Origin: Escherichia coli O127:H6 str. E2348/69
Lineage (GTDB): Bacteria; Pseudomonadota; Gammaproteobacteria; Enterobacterales; Enterobacteriaceae
DNA: 64,000 bases
NCBI RefSeq assembly: GCF_000026545.1
Contig: NC_011601.1
Strand: one strand, 5' to 3'
Part shown: positions 28,322 to 44,716 of the stretch, in pieces
Layout of the letters: every line of letters begins with the position of its first letter
Position numbering within the stretch: position 1 is the stretch's first letter
The notes under the pieces: model-generated
Database searches by the model: none
Told to the model about the DNA's origin: nothing
Seen by the model: the letters and a program-made list of their open reading frames with translations, nothing else
Program-made: the position numbers and the translations under genes

Positions 28322-28757
28322 GATTCTGGACCCGCGCGTTGGGAAGGAATTTCCGCTCCCGACTTATGCCACCTCTGGCTCTGCCGGACTTGACCTGCGT
28401 GCCTGTCTCGACGACGCCGTAGAACTGGCTCCGGGTGACACTACGCTAGTTCCGACCGGGCTGGCGATTCATATTGCCGATCCTTCACTGGCGGCAATGA
28501 TGCTGCCGCGCTCCGGATTGGGACATAAGCACGGTATCGTGCTTGGTAACCTGGTAGGATTGATCGATTCTGACTATCAGGGCCAGTTGATGATTTCCGT
28601 GTGGAACCGTGGTCAGGACAGCTTCACCATTCAACCTGGCGAACGCATCGCCCAGATGATTTTTGTTCCGGTAGTACAGGCTGAATTTAATCTGGTGGAA
28701 GATTTCGACGCCACCGACCGCGGTGAAGGCGGCTTTGGTCACTCTGGTCGTCAGTAA
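28299..28757 (+). CDS. dut: dUTP diphosphatase
   Basis: 152-aa [18 protein letters not shown]...; overlaps the dfp 3' end. Confidence 0.95.
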
Positions 28758-28863
28758 CACATACGCATCCGAATAACGTCATAACATAGCCGCAAACATT
28801 TCGTTTGCGGTCATAGCGTGGGTGCCGCCTGGCAAGTGCTTATTTTCAGGGGTATTTTGTAAC

Positions 28864-29460
28864 ATGGCAGAAAAACAAACTGCGAAAAGGAACCGTCGCG
28901 AGGAAATACTTCAGTCTCTGGCGCTGATGCTGGAATCCAGCGATGGAAGCCAACGTATCACGACGGCAAAACTGGCCGCCTCTGTCGGCGTTTCCGAAGC
29001 GGCACTGTATCGCCACTTCCCCAGTAAGACCCGCATGTTCGATAGCCTGATTGAGTTTATCGAAGATAGCCTGATTACTCGCATCAATCTGATTCTGAAA
29101 GATGAGAAGGACACCACAGCGCGCCTGCGTCTGATCGTGTTGTTGCTCCTCGGTTTTGGTGAGCGTAATCCTGGCCTGACTCGCATCCTCACTGGTCATG
29201 CGCTAATGTTCGAACAGGATCGTCTGCAAGGGCGCATCAACCAGCTGTTCGAGCGTATTGAAGCGCAGTTGCGTCAGGTATTGCGTGAAAAGAGAATGCG
29301 TGAGGGTGAAGGTTACACCACCGATGAAACCCTGCTGGCAAGCCAGTTGCTGGCATTTTGTGAAGGTATGCTGTCACGATTTGTCCGCAGCGAGTTTAAA
29401 TACCGCCCGACGGATGATTTTGACGCCCGCTGGCCGCTAATTGCCGCACAGTTGCAGTAA
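28864..29460 (+). CDS. slmA: Nucleoid occlusion factor SlmA (TetR family)
   Basis: ORF 28822..29460 trimmed to ATG 28864 ([16 protein letters not shown]...), 198 aa. Confidence 0.93.
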
Positions 29461-29503
29461 TTCTCCCAAACGTTCAGGCAGAAACGTCTGCCTGACGCTT
29501 TTC

Positions 29504-30463
29504 TTACCATACCACCAGCATTCGCTTTACACCCTCCCTCGCCTGTTTAAAACCCTCATCCTCAGGATTGATTTGCAATAACCAGTTTATTCTTCCCTGC
29601 AAAGCATAAAGATACGCCGTTGCCTGTGCATGAAGATCGCCAGAAGAATCAAGCTCACCACGACGACTAAGATGCGAAATGACGCCATATTTTTGGCACA
29701 AATGTACTTCCTGACGCAGTGCCCTCCGCACTTCGCGGGCGAGTTGTGGTTTGTGATTAACAACAATCCCGGTTACTTGCTGGCGCTTACAGGCCGCGAC
29801 CAGGCAGCTTTTGCGTTGATTGAGGTTCAGGCCCAGCTCCGCTAACAATCCGCACACTTTATTTTTAACCAGGCGGGCATTGAAGTGACCGGAAAAGGTC
29901 ATGTCATCGCAGTAGCGGGTGTAGGTAATTCCCCGAGCCTGACACCATTCCCCTATGCGCTCATCAAAACGGCACATCACAAGATTGGAAATGGCAGGCG
30001 AAGTTGGTGCCCCCTGCGGTAACGCGTCGTTATAGCAACAAAGCCAGGTCAGCATGCTTACCACATTGCGTGGCAACTGGGCCTGGCGAAACACACGCCA
30101 GACCTGTAACCAGCTAATGCTATCGAAAAAGTTTTCGATATCGAGTTTCAGGATCTGCGGCTGTTGGCAGTGAGGCTGCGCATTGCTGACGATTGGGCAA
30201 CCCGGCCGGTAGGCGGTAGCAAAAGGGGAAAGAGGGAATTGTGAAAGGACGTTCTTAAGAATGTTGCGCTGTACGGTTTTGAGCAAGTAATTAGGGGCTA
30301 ACACCACCCGCTGACCGCCGTGACGCTTAGAAAGAATAATCCGTCGGTAATGGCGTGCGGCATGATTACTGAGCGCATACAGCCGCTGTATTTCTTTATC
30401 GGCGCTCCAGCCCGGCGAGCCGAACAAATCAAGCGCCAGAAGGGTTATCCGGGTAGCATCCAT
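29504..30463 (-). CDS. Retron-type reverse transcriptase
   Basis: 319 aa from ATG (ORF track gives 323 aa from an upstream GTG); RT motifs YCDDMTFSG (YxDD) and QGAPTSPAISNL; retron-typical VTG motif (QVTGIVVN); between slmA and pyrE, where K-12 has only a short intergenic palindrome. Confidence 0.85.
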   Translation of the reverse strand: MDATRITLLALDLFGSPGWSADKEIQRLYALSNHAARHYRRIILSKRHGGQRVVLAPNYLLKTVQRNILKNVLSQFPLSPFATAYRPGCPIVSNAQPHCQQPQILKLDIENFFDSISWLQVWRVFRQAQLPRNVVSMLTWLCCYNDALPQGAPTSPAISNLVMCRFDERIGEWCQARGITYTRYCDDMTFSGHFNARLVKNKVCGLLAELGLNLNQRKSCLVAACKRQQVTGIVVNHKPQLAREVRRALRQEVHLCQKYGVISHLSRRGELDSSGDLHAQATAYLYALQGRINWLLQINPEDEGFKQAREGVKRMLVVW

Positions 30464-30469
30464 TCCACT

Positions 30470-30755
30470 CTCCACATCACGGCGACCAAAAGAGGCACCA
30501 ACAGCGGCAATACCCTCAAACTATCCCGAAGGCGCGTAACTGTACTGAGCGCGTCAGCGCGACGTACGCGAAGCGTACTTAAGTACAATGGAGCGACTTT
30601 GGGTATCTGGACAAACTACTGGCGTTAAGTCGGCGACTCGCCGACCCTCCCGGCACAAAAGGCCGGAAACGCTATTGCCACTGCTGGCGAAAGCAGATTA
30701 ACACGATATCTTAAACCGCATCACGCTGCGCACAGTAAAAACCTGCGCAGCGCAT
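30470..30755 (-). ncRNA. Putative retron msr/msd template RNA (boundaries approximate)
   Basis: ~290 bp non-coding region directly upstream of the RT on the same strand, dense in perfect hairpins/palindromes (GTACGCGAAGCGTAC, GTCGGCGACTCGCCGAC, CGCTGCGCA...TGCGCAGCG). Confidence 0.5.
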
Positions 30756-30759
30756 ATTT

Positions 30760-31401
30760 TTAAACGCCGAACTCTTCGCGATAGGCCTTAACCGCCGCCA
30801 GATGTTCCGCCATTTCCGGCTTCTCTTCAAGGTAAGCAATCAGGTCTTTCAGGGTGATGATAGAGATCACTTTGCAGTTGTAATCACGCTCAACTTCCTG
30901 AATCGCCGAAATCTCGCCGCGCCCGCGCTCCTGACGATCGAGCGAAATCAATACGCCAGCAAGCGTCGCGCCATTGGCCTGAATAATTTCCATCGACTCG
31001 CGAATCGCCGTTCCGGCGGTGATCACATCATCCACCAGCATTACGCGTCCTTGTAATGCGCTACCGACCAGATTGCCGCCTTCACCGTGATCTTTTGCTT
31101 CTTTGCGGTTAAAGCAGTACGGCAGGTCCAGGTCATGATGCTCCGCCAGCGCTACAGCGGTAGTAGTGGCAATTGGGATCCCTTTGTAAGCAGGGCCAAA
31201 CAGCAGATCGAACTCAATGCCGGAATCCACTAACGCTTCAGCGTAAAAACGGCCTAACAGTGCCAGATCGCGCCCGGTATTAAACAGCCCGGCGTTGAAG
31301 AAATAGGGGCTTTTGCGCCCGGACTTCAGCGTAAACTCGCCAAACTTTAACACCTGCTTGCTAAGCGCAAATTCAATAAACTGGCGCTGATATGGTTTCA
31401 T
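30760..31401 (-). CDS. pyrE: Orotate phosphoribosyltransferase
   Basis: ORF 30760..31416 trimmed to [11 protein letters not shown] (213 aa); PRPP-binding motif [13 protein letters not shown]. Confidence 0.95.
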
Positions 31402-31466
31402 GCCTTCGCTCCTCATCTTACTTTTCTACAGACAAAAAAAAGGCGACTCATCAGTCGCCTTAAAAA

Positions 31467-32183
31467 TCAGTTTGCCAGCGCCGCCTTCTGCGTCGCTACA
31501 ATGGATTCGATTCCCCCTCGGGCCAGCGCCAACAAGGTGAGTAGCTCTTCATGGGTAAACGGCTCGCCTTCTGCCGTTCCCTGAACTTCAATGATGCGCC
31601 CGTCTTCGGTCATCACCACGTTCATGTCCGTTTCAGCGGCAGAGTCTTCAACGTATTCCAGATCGCAAACCGCTTCGCCGTTCACAATACCAACAGAAAC
31701 CGCGGCTACCATCCCTTTCATCGGGTTGGTTTTCAGCTTGCCATTTTCAACCAGTTTATTCAGGGCATCGGCCAGTGCAACACAAGCACCGGTAATCGAA
31801 GCGGTACGCGTGCCACCATCAGCCTGAAGCACGTCGCAGTCCAGCGTAATGGTGAACTCACCCAGCGCTTTCAAATCTACTGCCGCGCGAAGAGCACGGG
31901 CGATCAGACGCTGGATTTCCATTGTGCGTCCCCCCTGCTTACCTTTCGCCGCTTCACGGGCATTACGGGTATGAGTAGAACGCGGCAGCATACCGTATTC
32001 TGCGGTGATCCAGCCCTGGCCCTGACCTTTCAGGAAGCGCGGCACGCCTTCTTCAATAGAGGCGGTACACAACACTTTGGTATCGCCAAATTCGACCAGC
32101 ACCGAGCCTTCTGCATGTTTTGTATAGTTACGAGTCAGGGTAACGGGACGCACCTGATTATTGCTACGGCCTGCTGGACGCAT
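31467..32183 (-). CDS. rph: Ribonuclease PH (full length)
   Basis: ORF 31467..32207 trimmed to [15 protein letters not shown] (238 aa); C-terminus intact. Confidence 0.95.
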
Positions 32184-32309
32184 ATTGAAATCTCCGGCTT
32201 GAAACAAATGTGGCTGCGCATTATACGGACTTCCGGCGGTTATTCCTATCCTGACAAGGCATCGATGGCTATAATCCTTCCACCTCTCCTTTTATAAACA
32301 GGAACGTCT

Positions 32310-33173
32310 ATGATCCGCAGTATGACCGCCTACGCCCGGCGTGAAATCAAGGGTGAATGGGGGAGCGCAACCTGGGAAATGCGCTCGGTAAACCAGCGTT
32401 ATCTGGAAACTTACTTTCGTCTGCCGGAGCAGTTCCGTAGCCTTGAACCTGTCGTTCGTGAGCGTATTCGTTCTCGCCTGACGCGCGGTAAAGTGGAATG
32501 TACCCTGCGCTATGAGCCCGATGTCAGCGCGCAAGGTGAGCTGATCCTCAACGAAAAACTGGCTAAACAGCTGGTAACTGCCGCGAACTGGGTAAAAATG
32601 CAGAGTGACGAAGGGGAAATCAACCCGGTTGATATTCTCCGCTGGCCAGGCGTGATGGCGGCCCAGGAACAGGATCTCGACGCGATTGCCGCTGAAATTC
32701 TCGCGGCGCTGGATGGTACGCTGGACGACTTTATCATCGCGCGCGAAACCGAAGGTCAGGCGCTGAAAGCATTGATCGAGCAGCGTCTGGAAGGCGTGAC
32801 CGCCGAAGTGGTCAAAGTCCGCGCCCACATGCCGGAAATCCTGCAATGGCAGCGTGAGCGTCTGGTGGCTAAGCTGGAAGACGCCCAGGTGCAACTGGAA
32901 AACAACCGTCTGGAGCAGGAGTTGGTTCTGCTGGCACAACGAATTGACGTTGCCGAAGAGTTGGACCGCCTCGAAGCGCATGTTAAAGAGACCTACAACA
33001 TTCTGAAGAAAAAAGAAGCCGTTGGTCGTCGTCTGGACTTTATGATGCAGGAGTTCAACCGCGAGTCGAACACCCTGGCCTCGAAGTCTATCAATGCCGA
33101 AGTGACTAACTCCGCCATTGAGCTGAAAGTGTTGATCGAGCAGATGCGCGAGCAGATTCAGAATATTGAATGA
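32310..33173 (+). CDS. yicC: YicC family stress-induced protein
   Basis: 287-aa ORF; synteny with rph. Confidence 0.9.
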   Translation: MIRSMTAYARREIKGEWGSATWEMRSVNQRYLETYFRLPEQFRSLEPVVRERIRSRLTRGKVECTLRYEPDVSAQGELILNEKLAKQLVTAANWVKMQSDEGEINPVDILRWPGVMAAQEQDLDAIAAEILAALDGTLDDFIIARETEGQALKALIEQRLEGVTAEVVKVRAHMPEILQWQRERLVAKLEDAQVQLENNRLEQELVLLAQRIDVAEELDRLEAHVKETYNILKKKEAVGRRLDFMMQEFNRESNTLASKSINAEVTNSAIELKVLIEQMREQIQNIE

Positions 33174-33237: not shown

Positions 33238-33281
33238 TTTTCATACTGTCGCATATGATTGCATAGCATCGCGCAAAACAT

Positions 33282-33300
33282 TTGTACCCAAGACTGTACC
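33282..33300. repeat. attL core (left copy of the 19-bp direct repeat)
   Basis: TTGTACCCAAGACTGTACC, identical to 44406..44424; 61 bp upstream of the integrase start. Confidence 0.75.
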
Positions 33301-33360
33301 TTTAATAATTTATCCAATTCATTTTGGGTACAAAATGATAGTCAATATTCAGGTGAAACT

Positions 33361-34620
33361 ATGGCAAAGCTGACAGATATCCAAATCAAGTCATGGATTA
33401 AGGCAGGAGAACGCTTCGAGGGGCGCTCTGACGGCAACGGGCTATACCTTCGCTATCGAGTGGGGGATAAAGTGCCTGTATGGCGTTTTCGATATCAGTT
33501 CGCTGGGAAATCACGGGTAATGCTTATTGGATCTTATAGCGAAATATCCCTTTCCAAAGCACGGGAAATAGCCAAGGAATTATCCGCACGTGTAGCCCTG
33601 GGCTTCGATGTCGCCGGGGAAAAGAAAGCGCGAAAAGCGGCTGCTATAGAAAAGATGGAGCGGGAGAAAAACGCGCTTCGCGTGTCAGAGCTAGCAACCG
33701 AGTATTTCGAACGGCAGATTTTGGGACGCTGGAAACATCCCGATCTTCTGCGCCGGAGAATCGATAAGGATATCAACCCACATATTGGCAACATGAAGAT
33801 AGAGGACGTAAAACCCCGTCATATTGATGCGATGCTACAGAGCGTTGTTGATCGTGGCGCTCCAACCGTAGCTAATGACGTTCTGCGCTGGACTAAACGC
33901 ATATTCGATTATGCTATCAAGCGTCATGCACTGGAATTAAACCCAGCTGGAGCATTTGATCTGTCAGACGCTGGCGGGCAGGAAAGTAGCCGTATGCGCT
34001 GGCTGACCCGTGAAGAACTTATACGTTTTTTCCAAGCTATGCGCACTGCAAAAGGATTCAGCCGCGAGAACGAGCTGACCATGAAGCTAATCCTCTGCCT
34101 GTGTTGTCGCAAAATGGAGCTGTGCGGTGCTCAGTGGGATGAATTCGACCTTGATGAAGCAGTGTGGCATCTACCAGCAGAACGCGTTAAAAACGGCGAC
34201 GCTATTGATATACCACTACCTCCACCTGCGGTTGGTTGGTTGAGAGAGCTTCGCACTATCGCGGGCAGTGGGAGTAAATGGGTTCTCCCCGCGCGGAAGA
34301 TGCAACACCGCATGATTCCCCACATTCAGGAAAGCACACTCCCAGTGGCGCTGGCAAAAGTACGCCGCGAAATGCCAGAAGTACCAAACTTCACAATTCA
34401 CGATTTCAGGCGTACCGCCCGCACCCATTTAGCGGCGTTGGGTGTCGATCCCGTAGTCGCAGAACGTTGCCTGAATCACCGCATTAAAGGCGTTGAGGGT
34501 ATCTACAACCGCCACCAGTACTTTGAAGAACGACGGGCAGCCCTGGAACTGTGGGCGGGGCTTCTGGTTTCGCTTGAACGAGGGGAAAACTACAATGTTA
34601 TTCCTTTATCTAAAATATAA
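33361..34620 (+). CDS. int: Tyrosine-type site-specific integrase (P4-like)
   Basis: ORF 33259..34620 trimmed to MAKLTDIQIKSW (419 aa); catalytic region HDFRRTARTHL and C-terminal Tyr region (GIYNRHQY). Confidence 0.9.
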   Translation: MAKLTDIQIKSWIKAGERFEGRSDGNGLYLRYRVGDKVPVWRFRYQFAGKSRVMLIGSYSEISLSKAREIAKELSARVALGFDVAGEKKARKAAAIEKMEREKNALRVSELATEYFERQILGRWKHPDLLRRRIDKDINPHIGNMKIEDVKPRHIDAMLQSVVDRGAPTVANDVLRWTKRIFDYAIKRHALELNPAGAFDLSDAGGQESSRMRWLTREELIRFFQAMRTAKGFSRENELTMKLILCLCCRKMELCGAQWDEFDLDEAVWHLPAERVKNGDAIDIPLPPPAVGWLRELRTIAGSGSKWVLPARKMQHRMIPHIQESTLPVALAKVRREMPEVPNFTIHDFRRTARTHLAALGVDPVVAERCLNHRIKGVEGIYNRHQYFEERRAALELWAGLLVSLERGENYNVIPLSKI

Positions 34621-34636
34621 AAGTTTTGTTTGAAGG

Positions 34637-34739
34637 TATTCACCCTATTCACCTTTTTAATTAACTTCATGATTTTAAATAATAAAAAAGGGTGAATACT
34701 TACAGTAAAACTAATCACCTTAGTATTCACCTGTTCACC
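34637..34739. repeat. Cluster of five TATTCACC/TGTTCACC 8-mers (putative recombinase arm-type or regulator sites)
   Basis: TATTCACC at 34637, 34646 and 34724; TGTTCACC at 34732; inverted copy GGTGAATA at 34691; directly downstream of int. Confidence 0.5.
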
Positions 34740-34817
34740 TTCTAAAGCTGCTGTGGCTGCTCCCCTTGCCCGAAAACACGCCAGCCACCAGCGTTAAAAA
34801 AAACTACAAAAATCATC

Positions 34818-34839
34818 ATCGTACAGATCTGTACGATGA
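34818..34839. promoter_or_regulatory. Perfect 22-bp palindrome, putative operator
   Basis: CATCGTACAGATCTGTACGATG in the non-coding region between int and the cargo operon. Confidence 0.4.
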
Positions 34840-35123
34840 CGCCAGCACTCACCCTACAAAACAACCTAACTTATTGATTTCAAAAGTAGAGAAAATCTGC
34901 TTTATGCCACTAGCTCGCACCCGTCCCCAAAAAGAAAAAGCCCGCGCTGGAGACGCACGGGCTTTTGGGTACCGATAACCATGTTTGGAATCAACTCATT
35001 GAGTTCTGACCTCAATTTGCATGTTATCACAAGAAAAACACATTGTAATAATTGCAACAACGAATATCATCATTGCATATAATGAAACATAAATATCCGA
35101 TAGAACATACTGAGGTCTGACCG

Positions 35124-35675
35124 ATGCAAGATATTACAAACATCGCAGTGACTGGCGAAGATGGCGTGGTGACGTATGCCGACGGCAGTAAAGAGGAGTT
35201 CCAGTGCAGCGGAACCGTTGCGACCATCATTGCAAGTCTTGCAACGACACTCGAGAAAGAACGCAAAATGCGCATCGCCACCGGCGACCGCCTGCGCCGC
35301 ATGTACACCCGCGACAGTGATATGATTTCCCGCGGTTTGAATGGCACGTCTGCTACTTCCACGGCACCGACAGCAATGAATGCTGAGTTCATGCGTCTGG
35401 TACGTGCCGTAGCGCCGAAATACGATTCAGCACTGCCCGACGCCGACCCGCGCATCGTTGCGCTCGATGTGCTGCGCTACGCCCCTGCTGAGGCGTTCAG
35501 CGCCGTACACCCTACCCCAATGTCAGAAATCCAGCTGGATCAGGCTATCGATATACTCGAGCAGGTTGGCGACTACATGAAAGCAAACAATATCGCTCCG
35601 AAAATAATTTCTACAGGAGACGCAATCCGCAGCATCAATGCTGACAACGCCACCTTCTGGGGCAAAAAACACTAA
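35124..35675 (+). CDS. Hypothetical protein (island cargo, operon gene 1)
   Basis: 183-aa ORF with no recognised domain; first of four co-directional, tightly spaced ORFs. Confidence 0.6.
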   Translation: MQDITNIAVTGEDGVVTYADGSKEEFQCSGTVATIIASLATTLEKERKMRIATGDRLRRMYTRDSDMISRGLNGTSATSTAPTAMNAEFMRLVRAVAPKYDSALPDADPRIVALDVLRYAPAEAFSAVHPTPMSEIQLDQAIDILEQVGDYMKANNIAPKIISTGDAIRSINADNATFWGKKH

Positions 35676-35688
35676 AGAGATATGAAGC

Positions 35689-35877
35689 ATGTCTATCTAT
35701 GACCCGAAATTAGCCGCAGGCAACCCACAGCGCGCCCACCGCCCAATGCTGACCCGTCAGGATCTTGAAACGGCAAAGGCACGCAATAACTTCGATCGCC
35801 AGAGTCGCAACCTGCAGCAACTCAACGAATCAAATGCACGGTTCTGGAGTGAACAGAATGAGAAAGCCAAACGTTAA
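35689..35877 (+). CDS. Hypothetical small protein (operon gene 2)
   Basis: 62-aa ORF 14 bp after gene 1. Confidence 0.45.
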   Translation: MSIYDPKLAAGNPQRAHRPMLTRQDLETAKARNNFDRQSRNLQQLNESNARFWSEQNEKAKR

Positions 35878-36034
35878 GCCGGTCCTGCTGTCCGCCGAGC
35901 AGATGCAGGCCATACGCAACATTCAGGAACGTGAACGCCAGCGCTCCAATCTCGGCGTCGCTCCCACCGTTCACCAGATTGCCCGCGGCCTCATGGCTAA
36001 GGCTCTGGCCTCACTGGCAAGCGAGGGCGCGTAA
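35858..36034 (+). CDS. Hypothetical small protein (operon gene 3; start uncertain)
   Basis: ORF track gives 35765..36034; trimmed to ATG 35858, which has GGAG 9 nt upstream; stop overlaps the next start (TAATG). Confidence 0.35.
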   Translation: MRKPNVKPVLLSAEQMQAIRNIQERERQRSNLGVAPTVHQIARGLMAKALASLASEGA

Positions 36035-36765
36035 TGGGCGCCATTCACCAGATATATGAGCAGGAAATGTTCTATAACTGGATAGGCGATGGTAAACGAT
36101 GTGTAGCATTCCACGAAGCGGGCCATGCAGTAGCCGCATGGCTTATTCGCTTAGATATGCAGGTTATCGCCATTATGGATGAATCCGGCTACGTTGCTGG
36201 CGAACATGTACATGAAGCCCAGTGTTTGGGCGTTGTTAAACACGGCATAATCCACAGCCACGATCTCAGGCGTTTGCGGGAGAGTAAATCTGGTGTAGTT
36301 GGGCACGATGGCAAAGTTATCCCTTTCATACGCTACTACGCGGAAGGTATAAAGCGCGATGCAACAAAGGCCGCTTTTGTAGCCCTCGCTGGACCAGTAA
36401 GCGAAGCCATTTACGAAAATAACGAAATTTTCAATATAAAGTATTCACTCCCTCACCGCTATGACATGGCTAACGTAAATGACATGCTCGATTTAATATG
36501 TGCCACGGATAAGCGAATTAACAGGAAGTTAATGCTTTCTAAACTTGTTGAAAAGACCAAATTCCTCATGACTCAATACTGGCCGGAAGTAGGAAAAATA
36601 GCGCATTTGCTTGAGCGGGATAACATTGTTAATGGCCGCGATGTTAGCTCGCTAATCGGCCTCAACGTCATTGACCGGGCAACGCCATTTTTGGTATCTG
36701 ACTTGAGCAGTACATTTGCTCATCTCCCGTACTCGTCCCTGCCTCCGAATGAATTAGCAACTTGA
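36034..36765 (+). CDS. FtsH-like (M41-type) zinc metallopeptidase-domain protein lacking ATPase and membrane modules
   Basis: 243 aa; HEAGH zinc-binding motif (AFHEAGHAVAAW) and downstream LAGPVSEAIY segment resembling the FtsH protease domain; no Walker motifs. Confidence 0.65.
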   Translation: MGAIHQIYEQEMFYNWIGDGKRCVAFHEAGHAVAAWLIRLDMQVIAIMDESGYVAGEHVHEAQCLGVVKHGIIHSHDLRRLRESKSGVVGHDGKVIPFIRYYAEGIKRDATKAAFVALAGPVSEAIYENNEIFNIKYSLPHRYDMANVNDMLDLICATDKRINRKLMLSKLVEKTKFLMTQYWPEVGKIAHLLERDNIVNGRDVSSLIGLNVIDRATPFLVSDLSSTFAHLPYSSLPPNELAT

Positions 36766-36776
36766 AGACAGTAAAG

Positions 36777-36803
36777 TAGCCATGCATTTAACACGCATGG
36801 CTA
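36777..36803. terminator. Hairpin between convergent cargo operons (putative bidirectional terminator)
   Basis: 9-bp perfect stem TAGCCATGC / GCATGGCTA with a 9-nt loop, between the stops at 36765 (+) and 36813 (-). Confidence 0.45.
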
Positions 36804-36812
36804 TGTGAACAT

Positions 36813-38036
36813 TTAAGAATTAGAGCGCTTAGGCGATCGCGTAAATTGCACTAAAGCCCCTTTATGATCGTTAGCCTGCACATCACGATGCTCAACCAAC
36901 ATAGATTTTAATTTTGCCAGATGCACAACAGCAGCCTTCTTGCCAGTCAGGTACCCCTCGGGCAAACCAGCAATCATTTCCACATCAATAGCAGATAAAC
37001 CTGCGAATGCAGCAAGCCGTTCAACTGAAATGATTCCAGACGATGCCAGCAATTCAATAGTACGTTTCAACAAACGTGGTTTTTCAGGCTCACGATAATC
37101 ATCTCCCGGCTCTGATTTCGCTCCCCAACGTGCTGAACGACGCTTATAAAGATTTTGTTTCTCTTCTTCCGTAATAATATGCAGCACATGTAAACGCATG
37201 ATACTTGCCGCAACGGAAATACCATAGCGTTGTTTAATTAAAAGCAAGCTATCTAATGTTACCGGGGTCCTAATTTCTTCGGCAAATGTCTCAGCAGGAA
37301 GCAGCAGTGCTCCCGCAAATTTATGAGCCTGACTTTCCTTCAGCTTATAACGTTCGGCTTCGAGTTCGTTGCCAACATAGCGGTGAAGGATCAGATGACC
37401 AATTTCGTGAGCAAGGTCAAATCTGCTACGAAAAGCATTACCTTTATCTGAAGAGAGGAGAACAAAAGGAACACCTAAAGTCTCACTCCAGGCAGAAAGC
37501 CCTTCAATCTGCGCAACGCCTGTTTCTTCTCTAATAACGATAATACCATTACTCTCTGCGGCTAAAGCAAGATCCGGTATTTCCTTTGTACCAAGATTCC
37601 AAAGAGCACGGCACTCATTAGCAGCGTCTTCAATATCTGCATCACTAATTTCATCAATGTTTGTAAAGCTACGACGCGGTAGTTTTAGCTCCGGCAGATC
37701 TACAAACTCAGTCAGCTTAGTAACTAACTCATTAGCCCAATGGATTCGAGTTTCTAACATTGCTCGTGCAGCTACATGAGCTGATGCATTGCTTCTGAAC
37801 AGAGGCTTTGACATCCCCTTCAACAGAGGGCGCGTAAACCATTCAGGTGTAACATTTACGACAGTGGCCAGACGTTCTAAAGCCTCAGACTCTGGAGCCT
37901 GTTGACCGGAACGCCATTTGCTAATGGTTGCTGGTGATACACCCACCATAGTAGCTAATTGAGTTTGTGATAGCCGCCGGGCGGCTAGTACCTGTGCTAA
38001 CCTGCCCGGTTGAAATTCGGCGACGCCTCGGCTCAT
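36813..38036 (-). CDS. Fused HTH-XRE / ImmA-IrrE-type (M78-like) zinc metallopeptidase protein
   Basis: 407 aa; N-terminal XRE helix-turn-helix (LSQTQLATMVGVSPATISKWRSG); central HExxH motif (LAHEIGHLILH); start overlaps the upstream gene stop by 4 bp. Confidence 0.8.
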   Translation of the reverse strand: MSRGVAEFQPGRLAQVLAARRLSQTQLATMVGVSPATISKWRSGQQAPESEALERLATVVNVTPEWFTRPLLKGMSKPLFRSNASAHVAARAMLETRIHWANELVTKLTEFVDLPELKLPRRSFTNIDEISDADIEDAANECRALWNLGTKEIPDLALAAESNGIIVIREETGVAQIEGLSAWSETLGVPFVLLSSDKGNAFRSRFDLAHEIGHLILHRYVGNELEAERYKLKESQAHKFAGALLLPAETFAEEIRTPVTLDSLLLIKQRYGISVAASIMRLHVLHIITEEEKQNLYKRRSARWGAKSEPGDDYREPEKPRLLKRTIELLASSGIISVERLAAFAGLSAIDVEMIAGLPEGYLTGKKAAVVHLAKLKSMLVEHRDVQANDHKGALVQFTRSPKRSNS

Positions 38037-38680
38037 ACATTATCTTCCTCGGTTCCATCTTTTCTGATAATGCCCCTTTTGAGCCCAGGGAATGCATTAT
38101 CTTCTTGGGACGGAACTACATCATATCGGGTTAAAAAAAGTTCAAGTGGCTCATGAAAAACCCAGCGCTTCCCATCAGAACTTGGTACAACAAGCTCTAT
38201 AGACATCGGAGCTTCAGGCTGAATCTGCAACGAACCGGAAAAACGGCATACTACGAACAGTGTAGCTTTTGGCACATCAGAACCATCGGAGAATAAATCC
38301 GGTTGCACCATTTTTTCCACAAACACGTTCTCAGAAATGAGTTCTTGCTTACGTTTGCTACGGAATAATCTCTTCCACTGGTTATCATTGTAGCTTTCAC
38401 GAACAATCGTGAATATACCACTATGGCCTTCTACAATACGGTTACCACGCAGCTTTCCAGGATTACAACCGTTGGCCTCAAACACCTCATAAATAGTTTC
38501 ATTCAGGTTTAAATGACGATCATAACCAAGCGCGGTCGATCTGTGATCTAGCTTCTTCTTTTGAGCATAATCGTAAGAACGCTTTGATGCCGCGTAAATC
38601 GCGTCAGAAAGGGCCATGAAGAGTTGTTTTGAAACATTCTGAACGATGAGATCTGCCACTTTGGATTTTTTCACGACCAT
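38033..38680 (-). CDS. Hypothetical protein, co-operonic with the HTH-peptidase gene
   Basis: 215-aa ORF; AGGAA just upstream of the ATG; no recognised domain. Confidence 0.65.
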   Translation of the reverse strand: MVVKKSKVADLIVQNVSKQLFMALSDAIYAASKRSYDYAQKKKLDHRSTALGYDRHLNLNETIYEVFEANGCNPGKLRGNRIVEGHSGIFTIVRESYNDNQWKRLFRSKRKQELISENVFVEKMVQPDLFSDGSDVPKATLFVVCRFSGSLQIQPEAPMSIELVVPSSDGKRWVFHEPLELFLTRYDVVPSQEDNAFPGLKRGIIRKDGTEEDNV

Positions 38681-39209
38681 TTCCTATCACTGTCACTGAT
38701 AGCCGTGATTTTATATCAGTATTTTTTCGTGTGTCCATAACGCAATCAATTATTTTTTCCTTTGTCAGCAAGAATTATATAAAAAGCACTATCATGACAG
38801 GATTTGGGCCACTAACCTTTCACAGACTCTTGAAGTCCTAGAAAAAAGCAATGGCACAAGGTGTCCTTGCCGGGAGAAAAATCATCTGGCTACCAGCAAC
38901 CTTATAGATTCCAGATCAACGTAATATCAAAGTAAAACGTCCATTTCCGGTACCATATTTGGTCATTACGACGGGGGAAACTTATACCCACTGCTGCCCC
39001 ATCGTCAGCGCCGACAGGGACCTATGCCGCAAGGTATAAGGCAAAATTGGCATTTTCGCTATTCCCCCTGCCCGTATTTTTTGGCTTACTGGAATTTCTC
39101 TATCTAACACAATGAACTTGAGGCTATTCCGACAGGGAGAAAAGCGATCTACGCCTGACCGCCTGCCTCAGCAATCATCCAGGCAAGTACGTGTGTAAGG
39201 CTAACGCGA

Positions 39210-39890
39210 ATGAGTGATTTTTATTCCCCTCTACCAAGCTATGATCTTGTCCGGGCAGCGGAGATGCTGACTGATAAGGGGGCAAATTGTACCGGTAACG
39301 ATTTATTGGAACTATGGAACCAAGGCGTTATCGAGTTGTGTTTTTCTCTGCCGGACTACATTGCTTGTGAAGATGTTAATTTTCCCGGGCATGGTCACAG
39401 CATTTTGTTATCCGTGGATCCGATTAGCTTCAACCTTTTCTGGCTAAATGTTGATTACCCACCGAACTTAAATGCTAACTTTTCTGTGAAAGAATATGGC
39501 TCAGATAGTGAATTCCATGAGCAGTCCCTATGGATACCAACAGAACCGCACTACAACACTCACCATGATAACGGGGAAGGGCTTTGCGAAGCGTTAAGGA
39601 ATACTTATGGCCGGGAAAATTTACGAATACCAGGTGTCGAATTGCAAAAGGTTTGGCGCTTTTTGATCGGTCAGCCTTATGAAAAAAAGCCAACGCCTGA
39701 GCGTATCACCGCTAAGCAATGCCGCTTTATCGTCGCATTACTCAGATCGTATAACCTGACTGACGATGATTTTAAGGGGAGCATTAGGGACCTGAGAATT
39801 AAGATATCTAACCGGATCCCTTCAATCGGTGATCCTGAAATCGATGATAATACCCTTACTGACTGGCTGAAGAAGGGAGGGGTTCGGTAG
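39210..39890 (+). CDS. Hypothetical protein (island cargo, orphan)
   Basis: 226-aa ORF with no recognised domain; divergent from the 38680 operon. Confidence 0.6.
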   Translation: MSDFYSPLPSYDLVRAAEMLTDKGANCTGNDLLELWNQGVIELCFSLPDYIACEDVNFPGHGHSILLSVDPISFNLFWLNVDYPPNLNANFSVKEYGSDSEFHEQSLWIPTEPHYNTHHDNGEGLCEALRNTYGRENLRIPGVELQKVWRFLIGQPYEKKPTPERITAKQCRFIVALLRSYNLTDDDFKGSIRDLRIKISNRIPSIGDPEIDDNTLTDWLKKGGVR

Positions 39891-39992
39891 CTGAGTTTTC
39901 ATAACTCCGATGAGTTTTCAATAACTCCCCCACCCGTAACCACCTACCCCGTAGCCTTGCGATTACCTTCTCACTCAATAGCAGGTAATCGC

Positions 39993-40205
39993 ATGAAATC
40001 GCAAACTTTCACCTTTCCTACCAATGGCAACGCACGAGCCAAACAAGTGGCGCACTATCTTGGAGTGCATATCAGCACCGTATGGCGCTATGCAAAACGT
40101 CCTGATTTTCCAAAACCCCACCAGTTAACCGACGGCGTGACCGTCTTTGACGCCGCAGCTATTCGCCAATGGAACAAGCAAAAAACCGGGGGTGAGAATG
40201 CTTAA
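39993..40205 (+). CDS. alpA: AlpA-family phage transcriptional regulator / excisionase-like protein
   Basis: ORF 39957..40205 trimmed to MKSQTFTF (70 aa); HTH segment AKQVAHYLGVHISTVWRYAKRPDFPKP typical of AlpA/Vis. Confidence 0.7.
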   Translation: MKSQTFTFPTNGNARAKQVAHYLGVHISTVWRYAKRPDFPKPHQLTDGVTVFDAAAIRQWNKQKTGGENA

Positions 40206-40259
40206 CGCGACCGTGAGCACACCCTGCACGACAGCCGTTCGATCTCCATTGTTGGCGGG

Positions 40260-40454
40260 TCAGGCTTTCGGCTCAATACCCAGCCGCTGGAGTTCTTTGC
40301 GCCCCAAGGTTTTCATCCAATTAGCTAAACTCATACCTGCATCTCGTGCGGCGGCCTCGAATTGCTCTTTCAATTCTGGGGCGATCCTCACTTGGAAAGC
40401 TGGTGCCTTTCCCCTGCCTTTGGGCTGTTTATCACGCTGTATTACTGTTGACAT
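40260..40454 (-). CDS. Putative ribbon-helix-helix DNA-binding protein
   Basis: ORF 40260..40547 trimmed to MSTVIQRD (64 aa); beta-strand plus two-helix pattern (FQVRIAPELKEQFEAAARDAGMSLANWM). Confidence 0.45.
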   Translation of the reverse strand: MSTVIQRDKQPKGRGKAPAFQVRIAPELKEQFEAAARDAGMSLANWMKTLGRKELQRLGIEPKA

Positions 40455-40588
40455 GTATGTACCTATTAAACTAAGATTCAAATCAATAGGTACGCACCTT
40501 AACATGTTAAGGTCAGAAAAGACAACGCCCCGTAGTGCTCGCAACACATACGGGGCGTCTAACCAACAACGTTACGGAGACTAACGCT

Positions 40589-40789
40589 ATGGCTAAGCCG
40601 CAGTGTACCCAAACTCACCCCAAATATCAGTATCGTTTTATGGCGCTCGATCGCGCTGACCGCCAGGCAAAACCCTGCAAAATCATTGTTGAGGCCACCA
40701 GCGAGCATGAAGCACGTAAGGTGTTGGCACCTCACTACATCCTGTCACTGTCCGCCGTTTTGCCAGTTCAGGAGGTGAGCCATGTTTAA
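40589..40789 (+). CDS. Hypothetical protein (replication-module operon)
   Basis: ORF 40535..40789 trimmed to ATG 40589, which follows GGAGA; 66 aa. Confidence 0.4.
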   Translation: MAKPQCTQTHPKYQYRFMALDRADRQAKPCKIIVEATSEHEARKVLAPHYILSLSAVLPVQEVSHV

Positions 40790-40976
40790 TGTCATTGTCA
40801 CGGTCACCTATCACTTTTCGGGAACGATCCGTCGTTTTGCTATTCCGGAACGTTTCAATAATCGTGAGCTCGCAGAGAAAGCGGCGCAGCAGTTAACCCA
40901 TACCAGCTATCTGGATGATGGAGTGAGCAGAATTGTGACCCACGCGGCGGAAGTAGTGGAGGTGCGCCATGTATGA
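40782..40976 (+). CDS. Hypothetical protein (replication-module operon)
   Basis: 64-aa ORF whose start overlaps the upstream stop. Confidence 0.4.
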   Translation: MFNVIVTVTYHFSGTIRRFAIPERFNNRELAEKAAQQLTHTSYLDDGVSRIVTHAAEVVEVRHV

Positions 40977-41157
40977 CGCCTACCTGAACCCAAAGGACGC
41001 ACTCCGTCCGATCGCCGTTGCACTCGAGGCTGCGCAGTTTATCGCGCTTGACCCGGAGAATACCGATTTAGCCCATGAGCTGATCGCCTGGGCACTTGAA
41101 ACAGCCGCGCGTGCCTCAGCTGCGCAACGTAACACCCCGGAGGTGGACAATGCTTAA
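40969..41157 (+). CDS. Hypothetical protein (replication-module operon)
   Basis: 62-aa ORF whose start overlaps the upstream stop. Confidence 0.4.
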   Translation: MYDAYLNPKDALRPIAVALEAAQFIALDPENTDLAHELIAWALETAARASAAQRNTPEVDNA

Positions 41158-41458
41158 TCTCAATACATGGAATCTTTTCACGCTGCCGCTGAACGGTGGC
41201 GCAGCTGAGACAGCGCCGGACGATCTGCGTCTGCTGGCCGCTGTGGGGGACGAGGCTCGCAACAACTACCTGCGCGGTGTAAGCGCCATCGGCAATCTGA
41301 TCTTCTGGGCATGTGATAACCCCAACTACACCGACCATCAAGCTGACCTGCCAGCGCTGGGCGCATTCCTGAAACATACCGCTGATATGGCGCGCGCTGC
41401 CGAATTCATGGCAGGACATCTGGACTCACTGGCTGACGGCAAAGAGGGAGGCAAATAA
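41150..41458 (+). CDS. Hypothetical protein (replication-module operon)
   Basis: ORF 41096..41458 trimmed to ATG 41150, which follows GGAGGTGG; 102 aa. Confidence 0.45.
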   Translation: MLNLNTWNLFTLPLNGGAAETAPDDLRLLAAVGDEARNNYLRGVSAIGNLIFWACDNPNYTDHQADLPALGAFLKHTADMARAAEFMAGHLDSLADGKEGGK

Positions 41459-41679
41459 TGCCACGCAAACATCGCTCATCAAGCAACCTGATCAAATTAA
41501 TGGAACGCCAGAAAGGTATAGGGCGCGACGATATCCAGATCGCAGATAATCGCCCTACATTCATGCCGTACGAGCCGAACGGAACCTACGCTACAAACCG
41601 CCATACCCGCCGTATGCTACGCAAGCTCCACGGCATCCAGGCAAAAAGAATGTGTGATCTGAAAGGAGGTCAGAAATGA
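41458..41679 (+). CDS. Hypothetical protein (replication-module operon)
   Basis: 73-aa ORF; stop overlaps the primase start. Confidence 0.45.
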   Translation: MPRKHRSSSNLIKLMERQKGIGRDDIQIADNRPTFMPYEPNGTYATNRHTRRMLRKLHGIQAKRMCDLKGGQK

Positions 41680-44090
41680 GTGGATTCGATCACCTGATGG
41701 AGCAGGGGCAGAAACGCACCCCTGCTCGTTTTACTGCAAATAGCTTTTCTGACCTGTGCAACGCTATTCTATCGCATCGTGTGCAAATTTCCATCACACA
41801 GGAAATGACGGATGAAGAACGGCGCAAAGAAAAGCAGAAACTGTACTGGTTCTCGGCAACTACCCAGCAGGACGGGCAGCGACGTAAACCCGAAAACATG
41901 GCACCGTGTGCTTTCGGTATGCTGGACATTGACGGCAGCACTCCCGGTGCAATCACAGCACTTGTACAGGTGTTCCGGCGATACTCAATGCTGGTGTACC
42001 AGACGGCCAGCTATACGACGGATGAACCTCGTCTGCGTATTGTGTGCGAGCTTTCCCGAGCGGTTGAATCTGACTACCGCCGAGCGACAGGCGAATCCAT
42101 AGAAACTTTGTTGATGCAGGAGGCTGGATTCTCATTCGCCAGCCTGGCGGATAAGAAAGCACGCTGGGAGAACGGCAGCGATTATGTTGTCTTTGACCGC
42201 AATGTATACGGCGCTCAAAGCTATTGCTACTGTCCACACACTGGAGCGAAAGCCCAGAATTACGCGGGCGCGGTAATCGACGTAGGGGCGTTACCGGAAC
42301 CCGCCCAGCCACCAGCGAAGGCGGCCAAAAGCAAGGCAAAGAAACAGCGCCAGCGTGACGCCGCGGCGGTAATAGATGCTGATTTTGACGATCTGAGCGC
42401 CGGACCGGATAACTTCCTTATCGCCGACCTGCGCAGCGCACTCTGGTTTCCCTCCATGCTGCAAAAGGCATGGGACAATGGGGCGTGGATTGAGCAGGGC
42501 TACCGCCTTGCATCTCTCAAAGGCACCGATTTTGAGGACGACGCGCGGCAACTGTGGGTCGAGTGGTCATTGACCGCAGCGGATGGCTGGCCTGATGAAG
42601 AACTTGATGAAGTCGCGGCACAACGCTGGAATGGTCTCGCCCCTGACAAAACCAGCTATAAAGCTATTTTTACTGATGCTCAGGCGCAGGGGTGGAATAA
42701 TCCGGGCAAATGGCGAGCAAAGGCCGCGTACATTGAGAAAATGGCCCCCAGCACACGCGGTGAACTGCTGGCGCAATATTACGGCAACGTATGCCTGAAA
42801 GCTGATGGCAACATGGTTTATCACTATACCGGGCAGGTGTGGGAGCACATCGCCGATGCCGAGTTGCGCCGCCAGCTTTCGCAGATTTTCAAAGATAACG
42901 GGGTCCCCTTTACACCGTACGAGGTTAAAAGCGCGATTGAGGCTATGGGAATGCTTCTGCCTTTAATGGGAGAAACTCCTCGTAACCTGATTGGCTTTGC
43001 CAACGGCGTTTATGATCTCGAGGCGCAGCGATTCCGCCCCCACTGCCCAGACGATTGGCTGACCAGCCATAACGGCGTTGAATACACGCAGCCGGTTAAA
43101 GGCGAAACCCTGAAAAACAATGCCCCAAACTTCTGGCGCTGGCTGCATCATTCCGCAGGGGGCGACTTCGACAAAATGGAGAGAATCAAAGCCGCTCTGT
43201 ATATGGTGCTGGCAAACCGCTACGACTGGCAACTGTTCATCGAGGTTACCGGTGCTGGTGGCAGTGGTAAAAGCGTGTTCACGGGTATTGCACGTATGCT
43301 GACGGGCGAACTACACGCCACCAGCGGCACAATGGAGGACATGGACACCGCGCGCGAACGCGCATCTTTTGTCGGCAAAAGCCTGATCACCCTACCCGAC
43401 CAAGCAACATATACGGGTTCCGGGCCGGGTATCAAGGCTATAACGGGCGGCGACGTGGTAAGGATCGACCCAAAGCACGAAAAGCCATTCCATACGGTTA
43501 TTCGCGCCGTTGTCATCGCAACAAACAACGAACCTATGCGTTTCACCGAACGACAAGGCGGGATATCGCGGCGCCGGGTTATTTTCCCGTTTAACCATGA
43601 AGTGCCGGAGGCGGAACGTGATCCCCATCTGCTCGATAAAATTAAAGCCGAACTGCCGGTAATCGTCCGTGGTCTGCTGATTGACTTCGAACAGCCAGGC
43701 AAAGCCAAATCGCTACTTATCGCGCAGCGTGATTCAGCGGAAGCGCTGCAGGTGAAGAACGATAACGACCCGATGTATGGCTTTTGCTCTTACCTGCTAG
43801 GTTTGCCGAATCCCGAGGGCATGTACATGGGCGATGGGCGCATGGCGCGAGAGCCACGCATCTACCTCTATCATGCTTATCTGGCCTATCTGGAAGCCTA
43901 CGGTTATCAGAGAACCCCCACCCTACCGAAGTTCAGCGGAGATTTACGGGACACGCTCAAAGCCTTTGGTATTACTCTGGACAGTAAAAAGAGTAAAAAG
44001 GGCAAAAGATATAACGTCAATTTGTCTGACAGGGCACAAGAATGGCTGGGAGAAGACGAACTCTCAGCTGTGCCCGACACATTGCAGTAA
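41676..44090 (+). CDS. P4 alpha-like primase-helicase
   Basis: 804 aa; Walker A GAGGSGKS in the C-terminal half (SF3/D5-type helicase); last gene of a translationally coupled operon. Confidence 0.85.
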   Translation: MSGFDHLMEQGQKRTPARFTANSFSDLCNAILSHRVQISITQEMTDEERRKEKQKLYWFSATTQQDGQRRKPENMAPCAFGMLDIDGSTPGAITALVQVFRRYSMLVYQTASYTTDEPRLRIVCELSRAVESDYRRATGESIETLLMQEAGFSFASLADKKARWENGSDYVVFDRNVYGAQSYCYCPHTGAKAQNYAGAVIDVGALPEPAQPPAKAAKSKAKKQRQRDAAAVIDADFDDLSAGPDNFLIADLRSALWFPSMLQKAWDNGAWIEQGYRLASLKGTDFEDDARQLWVEWSLTAADGWPDEELDEVAAQRWNGLAPDKTSYKAIFTDAQAQGWNNPGKWRAKAAYIEKMAPSTRGELLAQYYGNVCLKADGNMVYHYTGQVWEHIADAELRRQLSQIFKDNGVPFTPYEVKSAIEAMGMLLPLMGETPRNLIGFANGVYDLEAQRFRPHCPDDWLTSHNGVEYTQPVKGETLKNNAPNFWRWLHHSAGGDFDKMERIKAALYMVLANRYDWQLFIEVTGAGGSGKSVFTGIARMLTGELHATSGTMEDMDTARERASFVGKSLITLPDQATYTGSGPGIKAITGGDVVRIDPKHEKPFHTVIRAVVIATNNEPMRFTERQGGISRRRVIFPFNHEVPEAERDPHLLDKIKAELPVIVRGLLIDFEQPGKAKSLLIAQRDSAEALQVKNDNDPMYGFCSYLLGLPNPEGMYMGDGRMAREPRIYLYHAYLAYLEAYGYQRTPTLPKFSGDLRDTLKAFGITLDSKKSKKGKRYNVNLSDRAQEWLGEDELSAVPDTLQ

Positions 44091-44108
44091 CTTGTAAAAA
44101 ATCACCAA

Positions 44109-44133
44109 GAACCCCGTAAATCGGGGTTTTTGT
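44109..44133 (+). terminator. Intrinsic terminator after the primase gene
   Basis: Hairpin ACCCCG-TAAAT-CGGGGT followed by TTTTT, 20 nt past the stop. Confidence 0.6.
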
Positions 44134-44150
44134 CTATTTATTAGTCTGAA

Positions 44151-44255
44151 AGGGTGAACAGGTGCGCATACCTTAACAAAGCTGTTCACTCTAATAATTT
44201 TCTTTAATATCAGTACACTACCCGCAATAAGTGAACAGATGGACGGGGTGAACAC
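44151..44255. repeat. Cluster of GTGAACA motifs near the right island end
   Basis: GGTGAACA at 44153 and 44248, GTGAACAG at 44231, inverted copy TGTTCAC at 44183; related to the left-end TGTTCACC/TATTCACC cluster. Confidence 0.45.
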
Positions 44256-44405
44256 TTCACACCTATAGCGCGAAATATTTTAATATTTGCAGTTGAATTG
44301 CAATCCTTGAAAACAGAAACGCGTAGCAAAACGTAGAGTGCTGAAAAAATTTTGTTGGGGAGCAGTTCAAACTGCATGAGCAATTTTCAAGCACTCCTCT
44401 TTGTC

Positions 44406-44424
44406 TTGTACCCAAGACTGTACC
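44406..44424. repeat. attR core (right copy of the 19-bp direct repeat)
   Basis: TTGTACCCAAGACTGTACC, identical to 33282..33300. Confidence 0.75.
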
Positions 44425-44655
44425 CAATAGAAAAAATAGAAAATAAAAACTCAGCAATAGCAGCGATTGGTTACACTACTCAACATTCAGATTCAACTCG
44501 TAACGCCAATTCTTACTTTTCAGCCTTCACAAATGCCGCCCACTCAAACAGAGCGGCATTTTTCTTCCCCGCAACTTCAATTCTGTTTTGCGTGCCTGCT
44601 CCAGATTTTGCGATGTTTTTTTGCCCAGCGCAGTGAGAACGTGAGATACTCACAA

Positions 44656-44671: not shown

Positions 44672-44716
44672 TTGTAGACTTACTTTCCTTGCAATCGATA
44701 TCACATGGAGTGGGCA

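Follow-up and report, generated by a model that had tools for sequence, protein, structure and literature searches.

Retron-Eco5 (Ec107), with which the element analysed here is identified, is located between pyrE and ttk/slmA, where it replaces a short palindrome, and its canonical allele makes msDNA and is induced by starvation (PMC6868368). Mestre et al. (2020) described the Ec107 branch as stand-alone and discussed both the fact that it is an orphan and its location near an orotate phosphoribosyltransferase (PMC7736814). The closest reverse transcriptase (RT) clade with effectors is that of the type III-A retrons, which comprise an RT, a PRTase-like protein and a winged-helix protein; their RTs and those of the Ec107 branch share a node of the RT tree (Mestre 2020, PMC7736814). 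The logic of msDNA synthesis is shared with Retron-Sen2 (St85) and Retron-Eco1 (Ec86), two tripartite toxin–antitoxin defence retrons that likewise combine a1/a2 repeats and a branching G with an RT in which the NAXXH and VTG motifs are present. However, the phenotypes of these two retrons are explained by a toxin encoded in cis (RcaT or an NDT-type effector), whereas the present element has none.

The same gene has previously been studied in the same strain. In E2348/69, deletion of E2348C_3890 was reported by Elfenbein et al. (2015) to cause loss of persistence in the mouse intestine, and the mutant was complemented in trans; the authors also stated that the retron of EPEC 'lacks an additional ORF' (PMC4569332). 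Their 'EPEC retron RT' is the RT described below, without any difference, but, in contrast to the present analysis, their paper neither uses the name Ec107 nor describes an msr-msd (PMC4569332). The O127:H6 serotype has been reported to produce msDNA (Lim et al. 1990, as cited in PMC4569332). In-host phenotypes of RT deletion (ΔRT) have been reported for both Retron-Sen2 and the EPEC retron. The ΔRT phenotypes in Salmonella were attributed entirely to the cis toxin RcaT by Bobonis et al. (10.1101/2020.06.22.160168), an explanation that is not directly transferable to EPEC because the cis toxin is absent. The EPEC mouse phenotype comes from a single study, which is older than this toxin–antitoxin reinterpretation in Salmonella (10.1101/2020.06.22.160168). 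Ec107 was omitted from the phage tests of Millman et al., and our literature search found neither a phage-protection test of Ec107 nor a follow-up on the EPEC retron phenotype.

The element, its site, the absence of an effector and the knockout of E2348C_3890 in E2348/69 are thus already published. New here are the status of the E2348/69 copy as a rare allele, the retention of the pyrE/slmA site in several lineages of the Enterobacteriaceae, the occurrence of the solo cassette with its RNA in more than one phylum, the partial conservation of the msd sequence and the purifying selection on the RT. Taken as a whole, the observations are best explained by a stand-alone Retron-Eco5 (Ec107) in the form of an E2348/69 allele, an identification that we regard as highly probable. 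The element occupies the same pyrE-ttk/slmA site as Retron-Eco5 (Herzer, Inouye and Inouye 1992, as cited in PMC6868368). The two also share the msr-msd-RT order without an extra ORF, a 319-aa YCDD RT and the same RNA architecture, and differ as allelic variants (~94% identity over 1299 bp).

Location and boundaries of the retron cassette

The window, i.e. the whole stretch of DNA that was analysed (64,000 nucleotides), is a 100% match to the chromosome of E. coli O127:H6 E2348/69. Comparison of the junctions with those of MG1655 delimited a cassette of 1299 bp (~1.3 kb), and the main features of the locus, apart from the RNA gene, are as follows.

28864-29460, plus strand: slmA, flanking gene
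29461-30759, minus strand: retron cassette, junctions compared with MG1655
29474-29495, plus strand: cassette-borne terminator hairpin, flanked by the stop codons of slmA and the RT gene
29504-30463, minus strand: retron RT, 319 aa plus stop, ATG at 30463 (RefSeq CDS)
30468-30473, minus strand: Shine-Dalgarno sequence GGAGAG, 4 nt ahead of the RT ATG (sequence reading and alignments)
30724-30752, minus strand: hairpin directly after the pyrE stop, cassette-borne
30760-31401, minus strand: pyrE, flanking gene

In K-12, which has no retron, the spacer between slmA and pyrE is a 36-bp palindrome, TATGACGCCGGATGACTTTTCATCCGGCGAGTTTCT, and comparison with the MG1655 junctions places the cassette in its stead; ~34 bp of the K-12 spacer have been replaced, allowing one ambiguous base per junction. 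The palindrome of K-12 is a short palindromic terminator. The junctions agree with the published Ec107 site (PMC6868368). An earlier note on this DNA, made from the sequence alone, had placed a retron on the minus strand between slmA and pyrE, at the position of Ec107 and between two housekeeping genes. The coordinates and the empty site of K-12 bear out this placement, and the MG1655 junctions and the published description (PMC6868368) confirm that the position is that of Ec107. As for the neighbours, the amino acid sequence of PyrE is 100% identical to that of K-12 PyrE, SlmA differs at one residue, and neither protein matches any of the PADLOC models, including that of the retron type III PRTase. 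Neither gene has co-evolved with the retron as a partner; both are ordinary housekeeping genes.

The pyrE-proximal hairpin (30724-30752) is probably a weak terminator, since no T-run lies behind it, and some read-through from rph-pyrE, and thus co-transcription, is therefore possible. The structure of this hairpin is kept, with compensatory changes, in all pyrE-linked relatives.

Reverse transcriptase

The RT gene (E2348C_3890 / H4J01_RS00650 / WP_000340177.1) is part of a longer minus-strand ORF with a GTG start (29504-30475, 323 aa), and the GGAG core of its Shine-Dalgarno sequence is kept in the aligned Enterobacteriaceae and L. grimontii sequences. The protein contains NAQPH (residues 94-98), YCDD(M) (residues 184-187) and VTG (residues 230-232), i.e. 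the NAXXH, YXDD and VTG motifs of the retron clade of RTs, and matches the Pfam domain RVT_1 (1.2e-21). The best PADLOC match was RT_Ec107-like (E 6.5e-131, 434 bits), with coverage of both the whole protein and the whole model; the runner-up was RT_III-A (312 bits; RT_III-A models ranged from 1e-93 to 5e-63), and the best 25 matches were retron RT models throughout. With the NCBIfam model retron_St85_RT, the score was 229.8, under the cut-off of 235. By its PADLOC scores, the RT belongs with Ec107 rather than with any other type of retron. The motifs, Pfam and PADLOC are thus in line with the initial description of a 319-aa RT with YCDDM and VTG motifs on the minus strand. No extra or effector domain fused to the 319-aa protein was found with PADLOC and Pfam.

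All 14 RT genes compared are intact, and dN/dS was 0.08-0.41 wherever dS could be estimated, a result that holds even where dS is saturated. Such values point to an RT that is kept by purifying selection.

The msr-msd RNA gene

The non-coding stretch from the RT start to the pyrE stop (30464-30759, 296 bp) folds as RNA at -90.4 kcal/mol (z = -4.73), and none of 200 shuffled sequences was as stable. The fold has the standard retron layout, with a 17-bp a1/a2 closing stem, two msr hairpins and a long msd hairpin, and the following elements were assigned.

30493-30692, minus strand: msr-msd ncRNA gene, ~200 nt, full-length covariance-model match
30673-30689, minus strand: a1 arm, helix 1 (15-nt core at 30673-30687; 17 bp in the consensus fold)
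30672, minus strand: predicted branching (priming) G, in the AAUAG/C motif directly 3' of a1
30648-30668, minus strand: msr hairpin 1, helix 3
30627-30647, minus strand: msr hairpin 2, GGGUCGGCG-AGU-CGCCGACUU, helix 4
30513-30619, minus strand: predicted msd, template for the ~107-nt msDNA; its stem comprises helices 5-8
30496-30512, minus strand: a2 arm (core at 30498-30512), pairs with a1

The start of the msd was derived from the base 5' of a2, and its 3' end and the 107-nt length were assumed from the name Ec107 and the common allele. The predicted msDNA corresponds to the plus-strand sequence of 30513-30619, the DNA stem-loop of which folds at -20.8 kcal/mol (z = -2.6).

Covariation was assessed in an alignment of nine RNA sequences, which included E. 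coli alleles, three other Enterobacteriaceae lineages, two Leminorella sequences and Pragia. In total, 95.8% of the cells were paired, and 24 of the 59 pairs showed compensatory changes, compared with 2-4 in controls in which the pairing partners were slid by 1-3 columns. Compensatory changes were present in 9 of the 17 pairs of the closing stem (helix 1) and in 4 of the 6 pairs of msr hairpin 1 (helix 3). On four of five measures, none of 500 shuffles reached the observed value, and the count of further pair types was reached by 7 of 500. A wider alignment yielded 32 compensatory pairs out of 59, although that alignment was fitted to the model structure and its counts therefore lean towards the structure. 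The RNA structure is strongly supported by covariation.

A covariance model (R1) was built from these Enterobacterales sequences, and the RNA of the window, which belongs to the training set, scored 220.9 bits. Full-length matches to R1 were also found upstream of solo RTs outside the training set, in Bariatricus (73.8 bits), a Robinsoniella-type lineage (60.1 bits) and Neisseria sp. (52.7 bits), and a search of the empty K-12 locus returned no match. Because no retron family was matched in an Rfam search of positions 28500-32500, the RNA was called from our own covariance model and from covariation. The weak Rfam matches in this region, a RyhB-like one at 31434-31479 (a terminator-like hairpin just upstream of pyrE) and a meaningless lncRNA one, were rejected. 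The earlier note had described ~290 bp of palindrome-rich msr/msd DNA upstream of the RT, in good agreement with the 296 bp, the fold z of -4.73 and the covariation found here. Both the msr/msd fold and the a1/a2 inverted repeat, on which that reading was said to depend, are present, and the covariance-model search that had been proposed as a check gave a full-length match for the window sequence as a member of the training set.

Several parts of the RNA are conserved at the sequence level. The AAUAGC context of G30672 is invariant in all nine aligned sequences and is kept in Neisseria and Lachnospiraceae as well. The rule for the position of the priming G is established retron biology, and G30672 is predicted to be the priming guanosine. 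The core of msr hairpin 2, GCGAGUCG, is kept across phyla. The msd sequence is generally taken to be variable among retrons; in this group, parts of it (GUAC...GCAC-loop-GUGC...GUAC) are shared from E. coli to Lachnospiraceae.

Putative promoter and proposed route of msDNA synthesis

A short promoter-like motif was recognized upstream of the RNA gene in the alignments.

30695-30703, minus strand: candidate extended -10 element, TGTTAATCT, 5 nt ahead of the a1 arm (30689)

An equivalent TGnTAnnnT sequence is found ahead of a1 in the majority of the aligned relatives, irrespective of the genomic site, and in Pragia only with a shifted TG; a sigma-70 consensus scan upstream of msr called no promoter. 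From this pattern, we infer an extended -10-like promoter carried by the cassette itself. The transcript would start just upstream of a1, from this promoter and possibly also by rph-pyrE read-through; in the RNA, as the fold and the covariation show, a1 is paired to a2. By analogy with other retrons, the RT would then bind the two msr hairpins, prime on the 2'-OH of G30672 and copy the msd leftwards from 30513, which would generate a branched msDNA of ~107 nt upon removal of the template by RNase H.

Alleles in E. coli

Of 5426 complete E. coli genomes, 381 (7%) contain the whole 1299-bp cassette, always as a single chromosomal copy, and all 10 copies examined with their locus, in genomes and metagenome contigs, lie between slmA and pyrE. 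The exact E2348/69 allele was found in three genome records, all of them O127:H6, and alleles 95-99% identical to it were found in 12 genomes. In contrast to these, 366 of the 381 positive genomes carry an allele that is ~94% identical to that of the window over 1299 bp. The published Ec107 ncRNA sequence was compared through two primer fragments only; both match the common allele exactly, whereas the window differs from them at 2 of 24 and 3 of 23 positions. The E2348/69 copy is thus a rare Ec107 allele. Its RT shares 93.7% amino acid identity with that of the common allele (dS ~0.19), and ~11 substitutions distinguish the msr-msd regions of the two, several of which, at the base of the msd stem, shift the pairing register.

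Related solo cassettes in other bacteria

RTs that are 87, 72 and 69% identical to that of E2348/69 are found at the same pyrE/slmA site and in the same orientation in other Enterobacteriaceae, the 69% pair being Pseudocitrobacter and a metagenomic relative. Four RT lineages, which share only 69-87% identity with the window RT, have retained this position immediately downstream of pyrE. More distant relatives reside in other housekeeping intergenic regions, and the same RNA gene is located upstream of the RT in all of them.

Leminorella: RT identity 60%, site cyaY / cyaA
Pragia: RT identity 52%, site CdaR-type regulator / galactarate-dehydratase-type gene (garD)
P0087 (metagenomic host): RT identity 51%, site DUF4160 / RraA-like
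Robinsoniella-type (two lineages, 79% mutually identical, same site): RT identity ~50%, site FtsX / acyltransferase
Neisseria sp.: RT identity 49%, site autotransporter gene / 76-aa ORF
Bariatricus: RT identity 49%, site short-chain dehydrogenase / MazG

Of the seven distinct contexts, four have the cassette flanked by convergent genes, and in six the RT and the gene upstream of it point in the same direction. Leminorella, Pragia, Neisseria and Lachnospiraceae (Firmicutes) all carry solo cassettes with this RNA.

The site shared among Enterobacteriaceae, the occurrence of the RNA in Firmicutes and the purifying selection on the RT speak for a stable, selected stand-alone state rather than a chance result of recent loss. 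The cassette itself is upheld by selection and is no decaying remnant. If the retron were instead a non-functional relic that lost its effector and persists because it is harmless, the absence of an effector and the presence of the cassette in only 7% of the complete E. coli genomes would be readily explained, as would the suggestion of Mestre et al. that the orphan branch 'lost the associated protein' (PMC7736814). Such a relic is very improbable, however, given that the RT ORFs are all intact with dN/dS of 0.08-0.41 even with saturated dS, that RNA pairing has been kept through compensatory changes across families and phyla and that lineages with RT identities as low as 69% still have the cassette at the same site. 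The msDNA synthesis and the starvation-induced expression of the canonical allele (PMC6868368) and the reported knockout phenotype (PMC4569332) also argue against it.

Search for an effector

No accessory or effector ORF was found in or beside the cassette. The ORF survey, PADLOC and the comparison with K-12 all uphold the statement of the earlier note that an adjacent effector gene is missing. A 102-aa antisense ORF (30320-30628, plus strand) and a 71-aa ORF occur in E. coli alleles only; because both are absent from the relatives with 72 and 69% RT identity, they were rejected as hidden effectors. Elsewhere in the window, there are LPS-core genes and further housekeeping genes, and a P4-like island is flanked by yicC and dinD. 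The sole defence genes in the 64-kb window are those of a self-contained Rosmer pair (RmrT/RmrA) on this island, which was rejected as an effector source: the pair is its recognizable cargo, and its other ORFs had no matches. In the seven distinct genomic contexts of the relatives, no known retron effector was detected. MazG, encoded directly downstream of the Bariatricus RT, and the small ORFs adjoining the Neisseria and P0087 RTs had no meaningful PADLOC match, with a marginal match to WH_III-A (E 0.0014) for the 76-aa ORF of Neisseria, which is on the opposite strand. The element therefore differs from tripartite toxin–antitoxin retrons (types I-XIII), in which an effector is encoded in cis or fused to the RT.

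Unlike in type III-A retrons, no gene for a PRTase-like or winged-helix effector adjoins the RT, and the sole nearby PRTase is the housekeeping PyrE. It is conceivable that the element is a type III-like retron that uses this enzyme, encoded directly upstream on the same strand, as its effector: PRTase-like proteins are the partners of the sister RT clade, the site downstream of pyrE is retained in the four RT lineages with 69-87% identity, and co-transcription is possible through the hairpin lacking a T-run. Nevertheless, such a role for PyrE is highly implausible. The PyrE of retron-free K-12 is 100% identical, the protein matches no PADLOC model (retron type III PRTase included), and relatives with the same ncRNA adjoin cyaY/cyaA, garD, FtsX and other genes but not pyrE. 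Moreover, a PRTase association was recorded for just 2 of the 59 RTs of the Ec107 branch (PMC7736814).

Function of the stand-alone retron

The earlier note had left three options, i.e. that the effector was lost, is encoded elsewhere, or that the retron acts in a different manner, and these are the options listed by Mestre et al. (2020; PMC7736814). An effector encoded elsewhere would make the element a split tripartite toxin–antitoxin system, in which a toxin acting in trans is held in check by the RT-msDNA, as RcaT is in Retron-Sen2, and the gut phenotype would then reflect toxin release. This arrangement would accommodate the Salmonella ΔRT phenotypes that derive wholly from RcaT (10.1101/2020.06.22.160168) and the EPEC ΔRT phenotype in spite of the lack of a cis effector (PMC4569332), and 'unknown protein effectors in trans' were raised by Mestre et al. 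(PMC7736814). It appears rather unlikely, because homologues of the known retron-associated proteins are missing from most genomes that harbour an orphan retron (PMC7736814), retron effectors are otherwise tightly linked to the RT and co-evolve with it, and the 64-kb window offers no candidate, the Rosmer pair being self-contained.

We favour a working stand-alone unit over a split system, a PyrE effector or a relic. Since the cassette is selected and has no cis effector, the functional unit is most likely the RT-msDNA complex, which would act directly or via a host factor encoded elsewhere, and not via a co-inherited neighbour. The conservation of msd sequence, the occupation of one site across genera and the gut phenotype of the ΔRT mutant are all compatible with a vertically kept, cross-phylum class of retrons that has no co-inherited toxin. 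As a tentative possibility, the RT-msDNA of this class might work through a conserved housekeeping partner or serve as a regulatory or decoy nucleic acid.

The residual value of this locus lies in the question of what a toxin-less retron does. Strain E2348/69 is well suited to this question, as a phenotype has been described for the ΔRT mutant, a 1.6-kb clone that complements it exists and the Salmonella toxin–antitoxin model does not directly apply in the absence of a cis toxin. The published primers could be placed on the window: the knockout primer of Elfenbein et al. is an exact match to 30434-30473, and their cloning primers match 30811-30831 and 29244-29263 exactly (PMC4569332). The complementing clone (29244-30831) thus contains the cassette and only the 3' ends of slmA and pyrE in addition. 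The GC content determined here is 51.77%, compared with the 51.8% reported by Elfenbein et al. (2015; PMC4569332).

Partial conservation and apparent mosaicism of the msd

The top of the msd (window positions 30540-30590; columns 158-212 of the retron ncRNA alignment A4) is partly conserved in sequence: E. coli shares with Lachnospiraceae and Neisseria a GUAC/GUAC helix and a hairpin of the form GCAC-loop-GUGC. These parts are kept where RT identity to the window RT is only ~50%. Conservation of this kind suggests that the sequence or shape of the msDNA is read by something. The basal part of the msd stem (30513-30530 and 30598-30612; ncRNA alignment A1) looks mosaic among the E. coli alleles, with CAGAU/GUUUG in E2348/69 versus CCAU/AUGG in the common allele. 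Features of both alleles occur together in strains R32_14_1F and EC42405, suggesting that the alleles have recombined.

Insertion sites and neighbouring genes in relatives

Robinsoniella-type contigs (loci L014/L015 and L024) carry two solo RTs (retron RTs without an adjacent effector), sharing 79% identity with one another, in the same FtsX/acyltransferase intergenic site, a second example of long-term fidelity to one site. The RT gene and the housekeeping gene convergent with it (slmA or cyaA) overlap by 4 nt at their 3' ends in Pseudocitrobacter, its metagenomic relative, and Leminorella, with zero spacer between the two genes.

Overlaps of RT and convergent housekeeping genes
L009, 5957-5960
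L013, 6957-6960
L010, 6969-6972

Two ORFs adjoin more distant solo RTs.

ORFs adjoining distant solo RTs
L016, 7106-7336, minus strand: 76-aa ORF downstream of the Neisseria RT, on the strand opposite to it
L017/L018, 7005-7442, plus strand: Bariatricus MazG-family gene, beginning 5 bp past the RT stop codon on the same strand

The Neisseria ORF gave marginal PADLOC matches to WH_III-A, the winged-helix partner of type III-A retrons (E = 0.0014), and to LmuC (E = 0.00093). This ORF may be what is left of such a partner, or the match may be due to chance. The MazG-family gene had no PADLOC match and was seen beside the RT in Bariatricus only, among the relatives examined.

Published primers and the region upstream of pyrE

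In the supplement of the study that deleted the window RT gene E2348C_3890 (Elfenbein 2015, PMC4569332), the reverse knockout primer (29495-29535) is missing 3 nt (CAC) that the genome sequence contains, a discrepancy that may stem from text extraction or typing; the forward knockout primer and both cloning primers match the window exactly. A weak RyhB-like Rfam match (31434-31479, minus strand; 24.5 bits, below the gathering score) lies on a GC-rich hairpin with a U-run (GGCGACUGAUGAGUCGCCUUUUUUUU), just upstream of pyrE. Rather than an sRNA, this hairpin most likely represents the rph-pyrE attenuator/terminator.

P4-like island

The window also contains a P4-like satellite island, whose cargo includes the Rosmer anti-phage pair RmrA and RmrT.

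Features of the island
33259-44700: entire island, between yicC and dinD
33361-34620, plus strand: integrase
36813-38036, minus strand: RmrA (PADLOC, 3.5e-125)
38033-38680, minus strand: RmrT (PADLOC, 8.1e-16)
41676-44090, plus strand: primase

An Icd-like gene and HTH genes are also present, and three cargo ORFs (35124-35675, 36034-36765, and 39210-39890) had no match in PADLOC or PHROG. An integrase gene likewise adjoins yicC in L005 and L006, two loci with RTs of 87% identity to the window RT.
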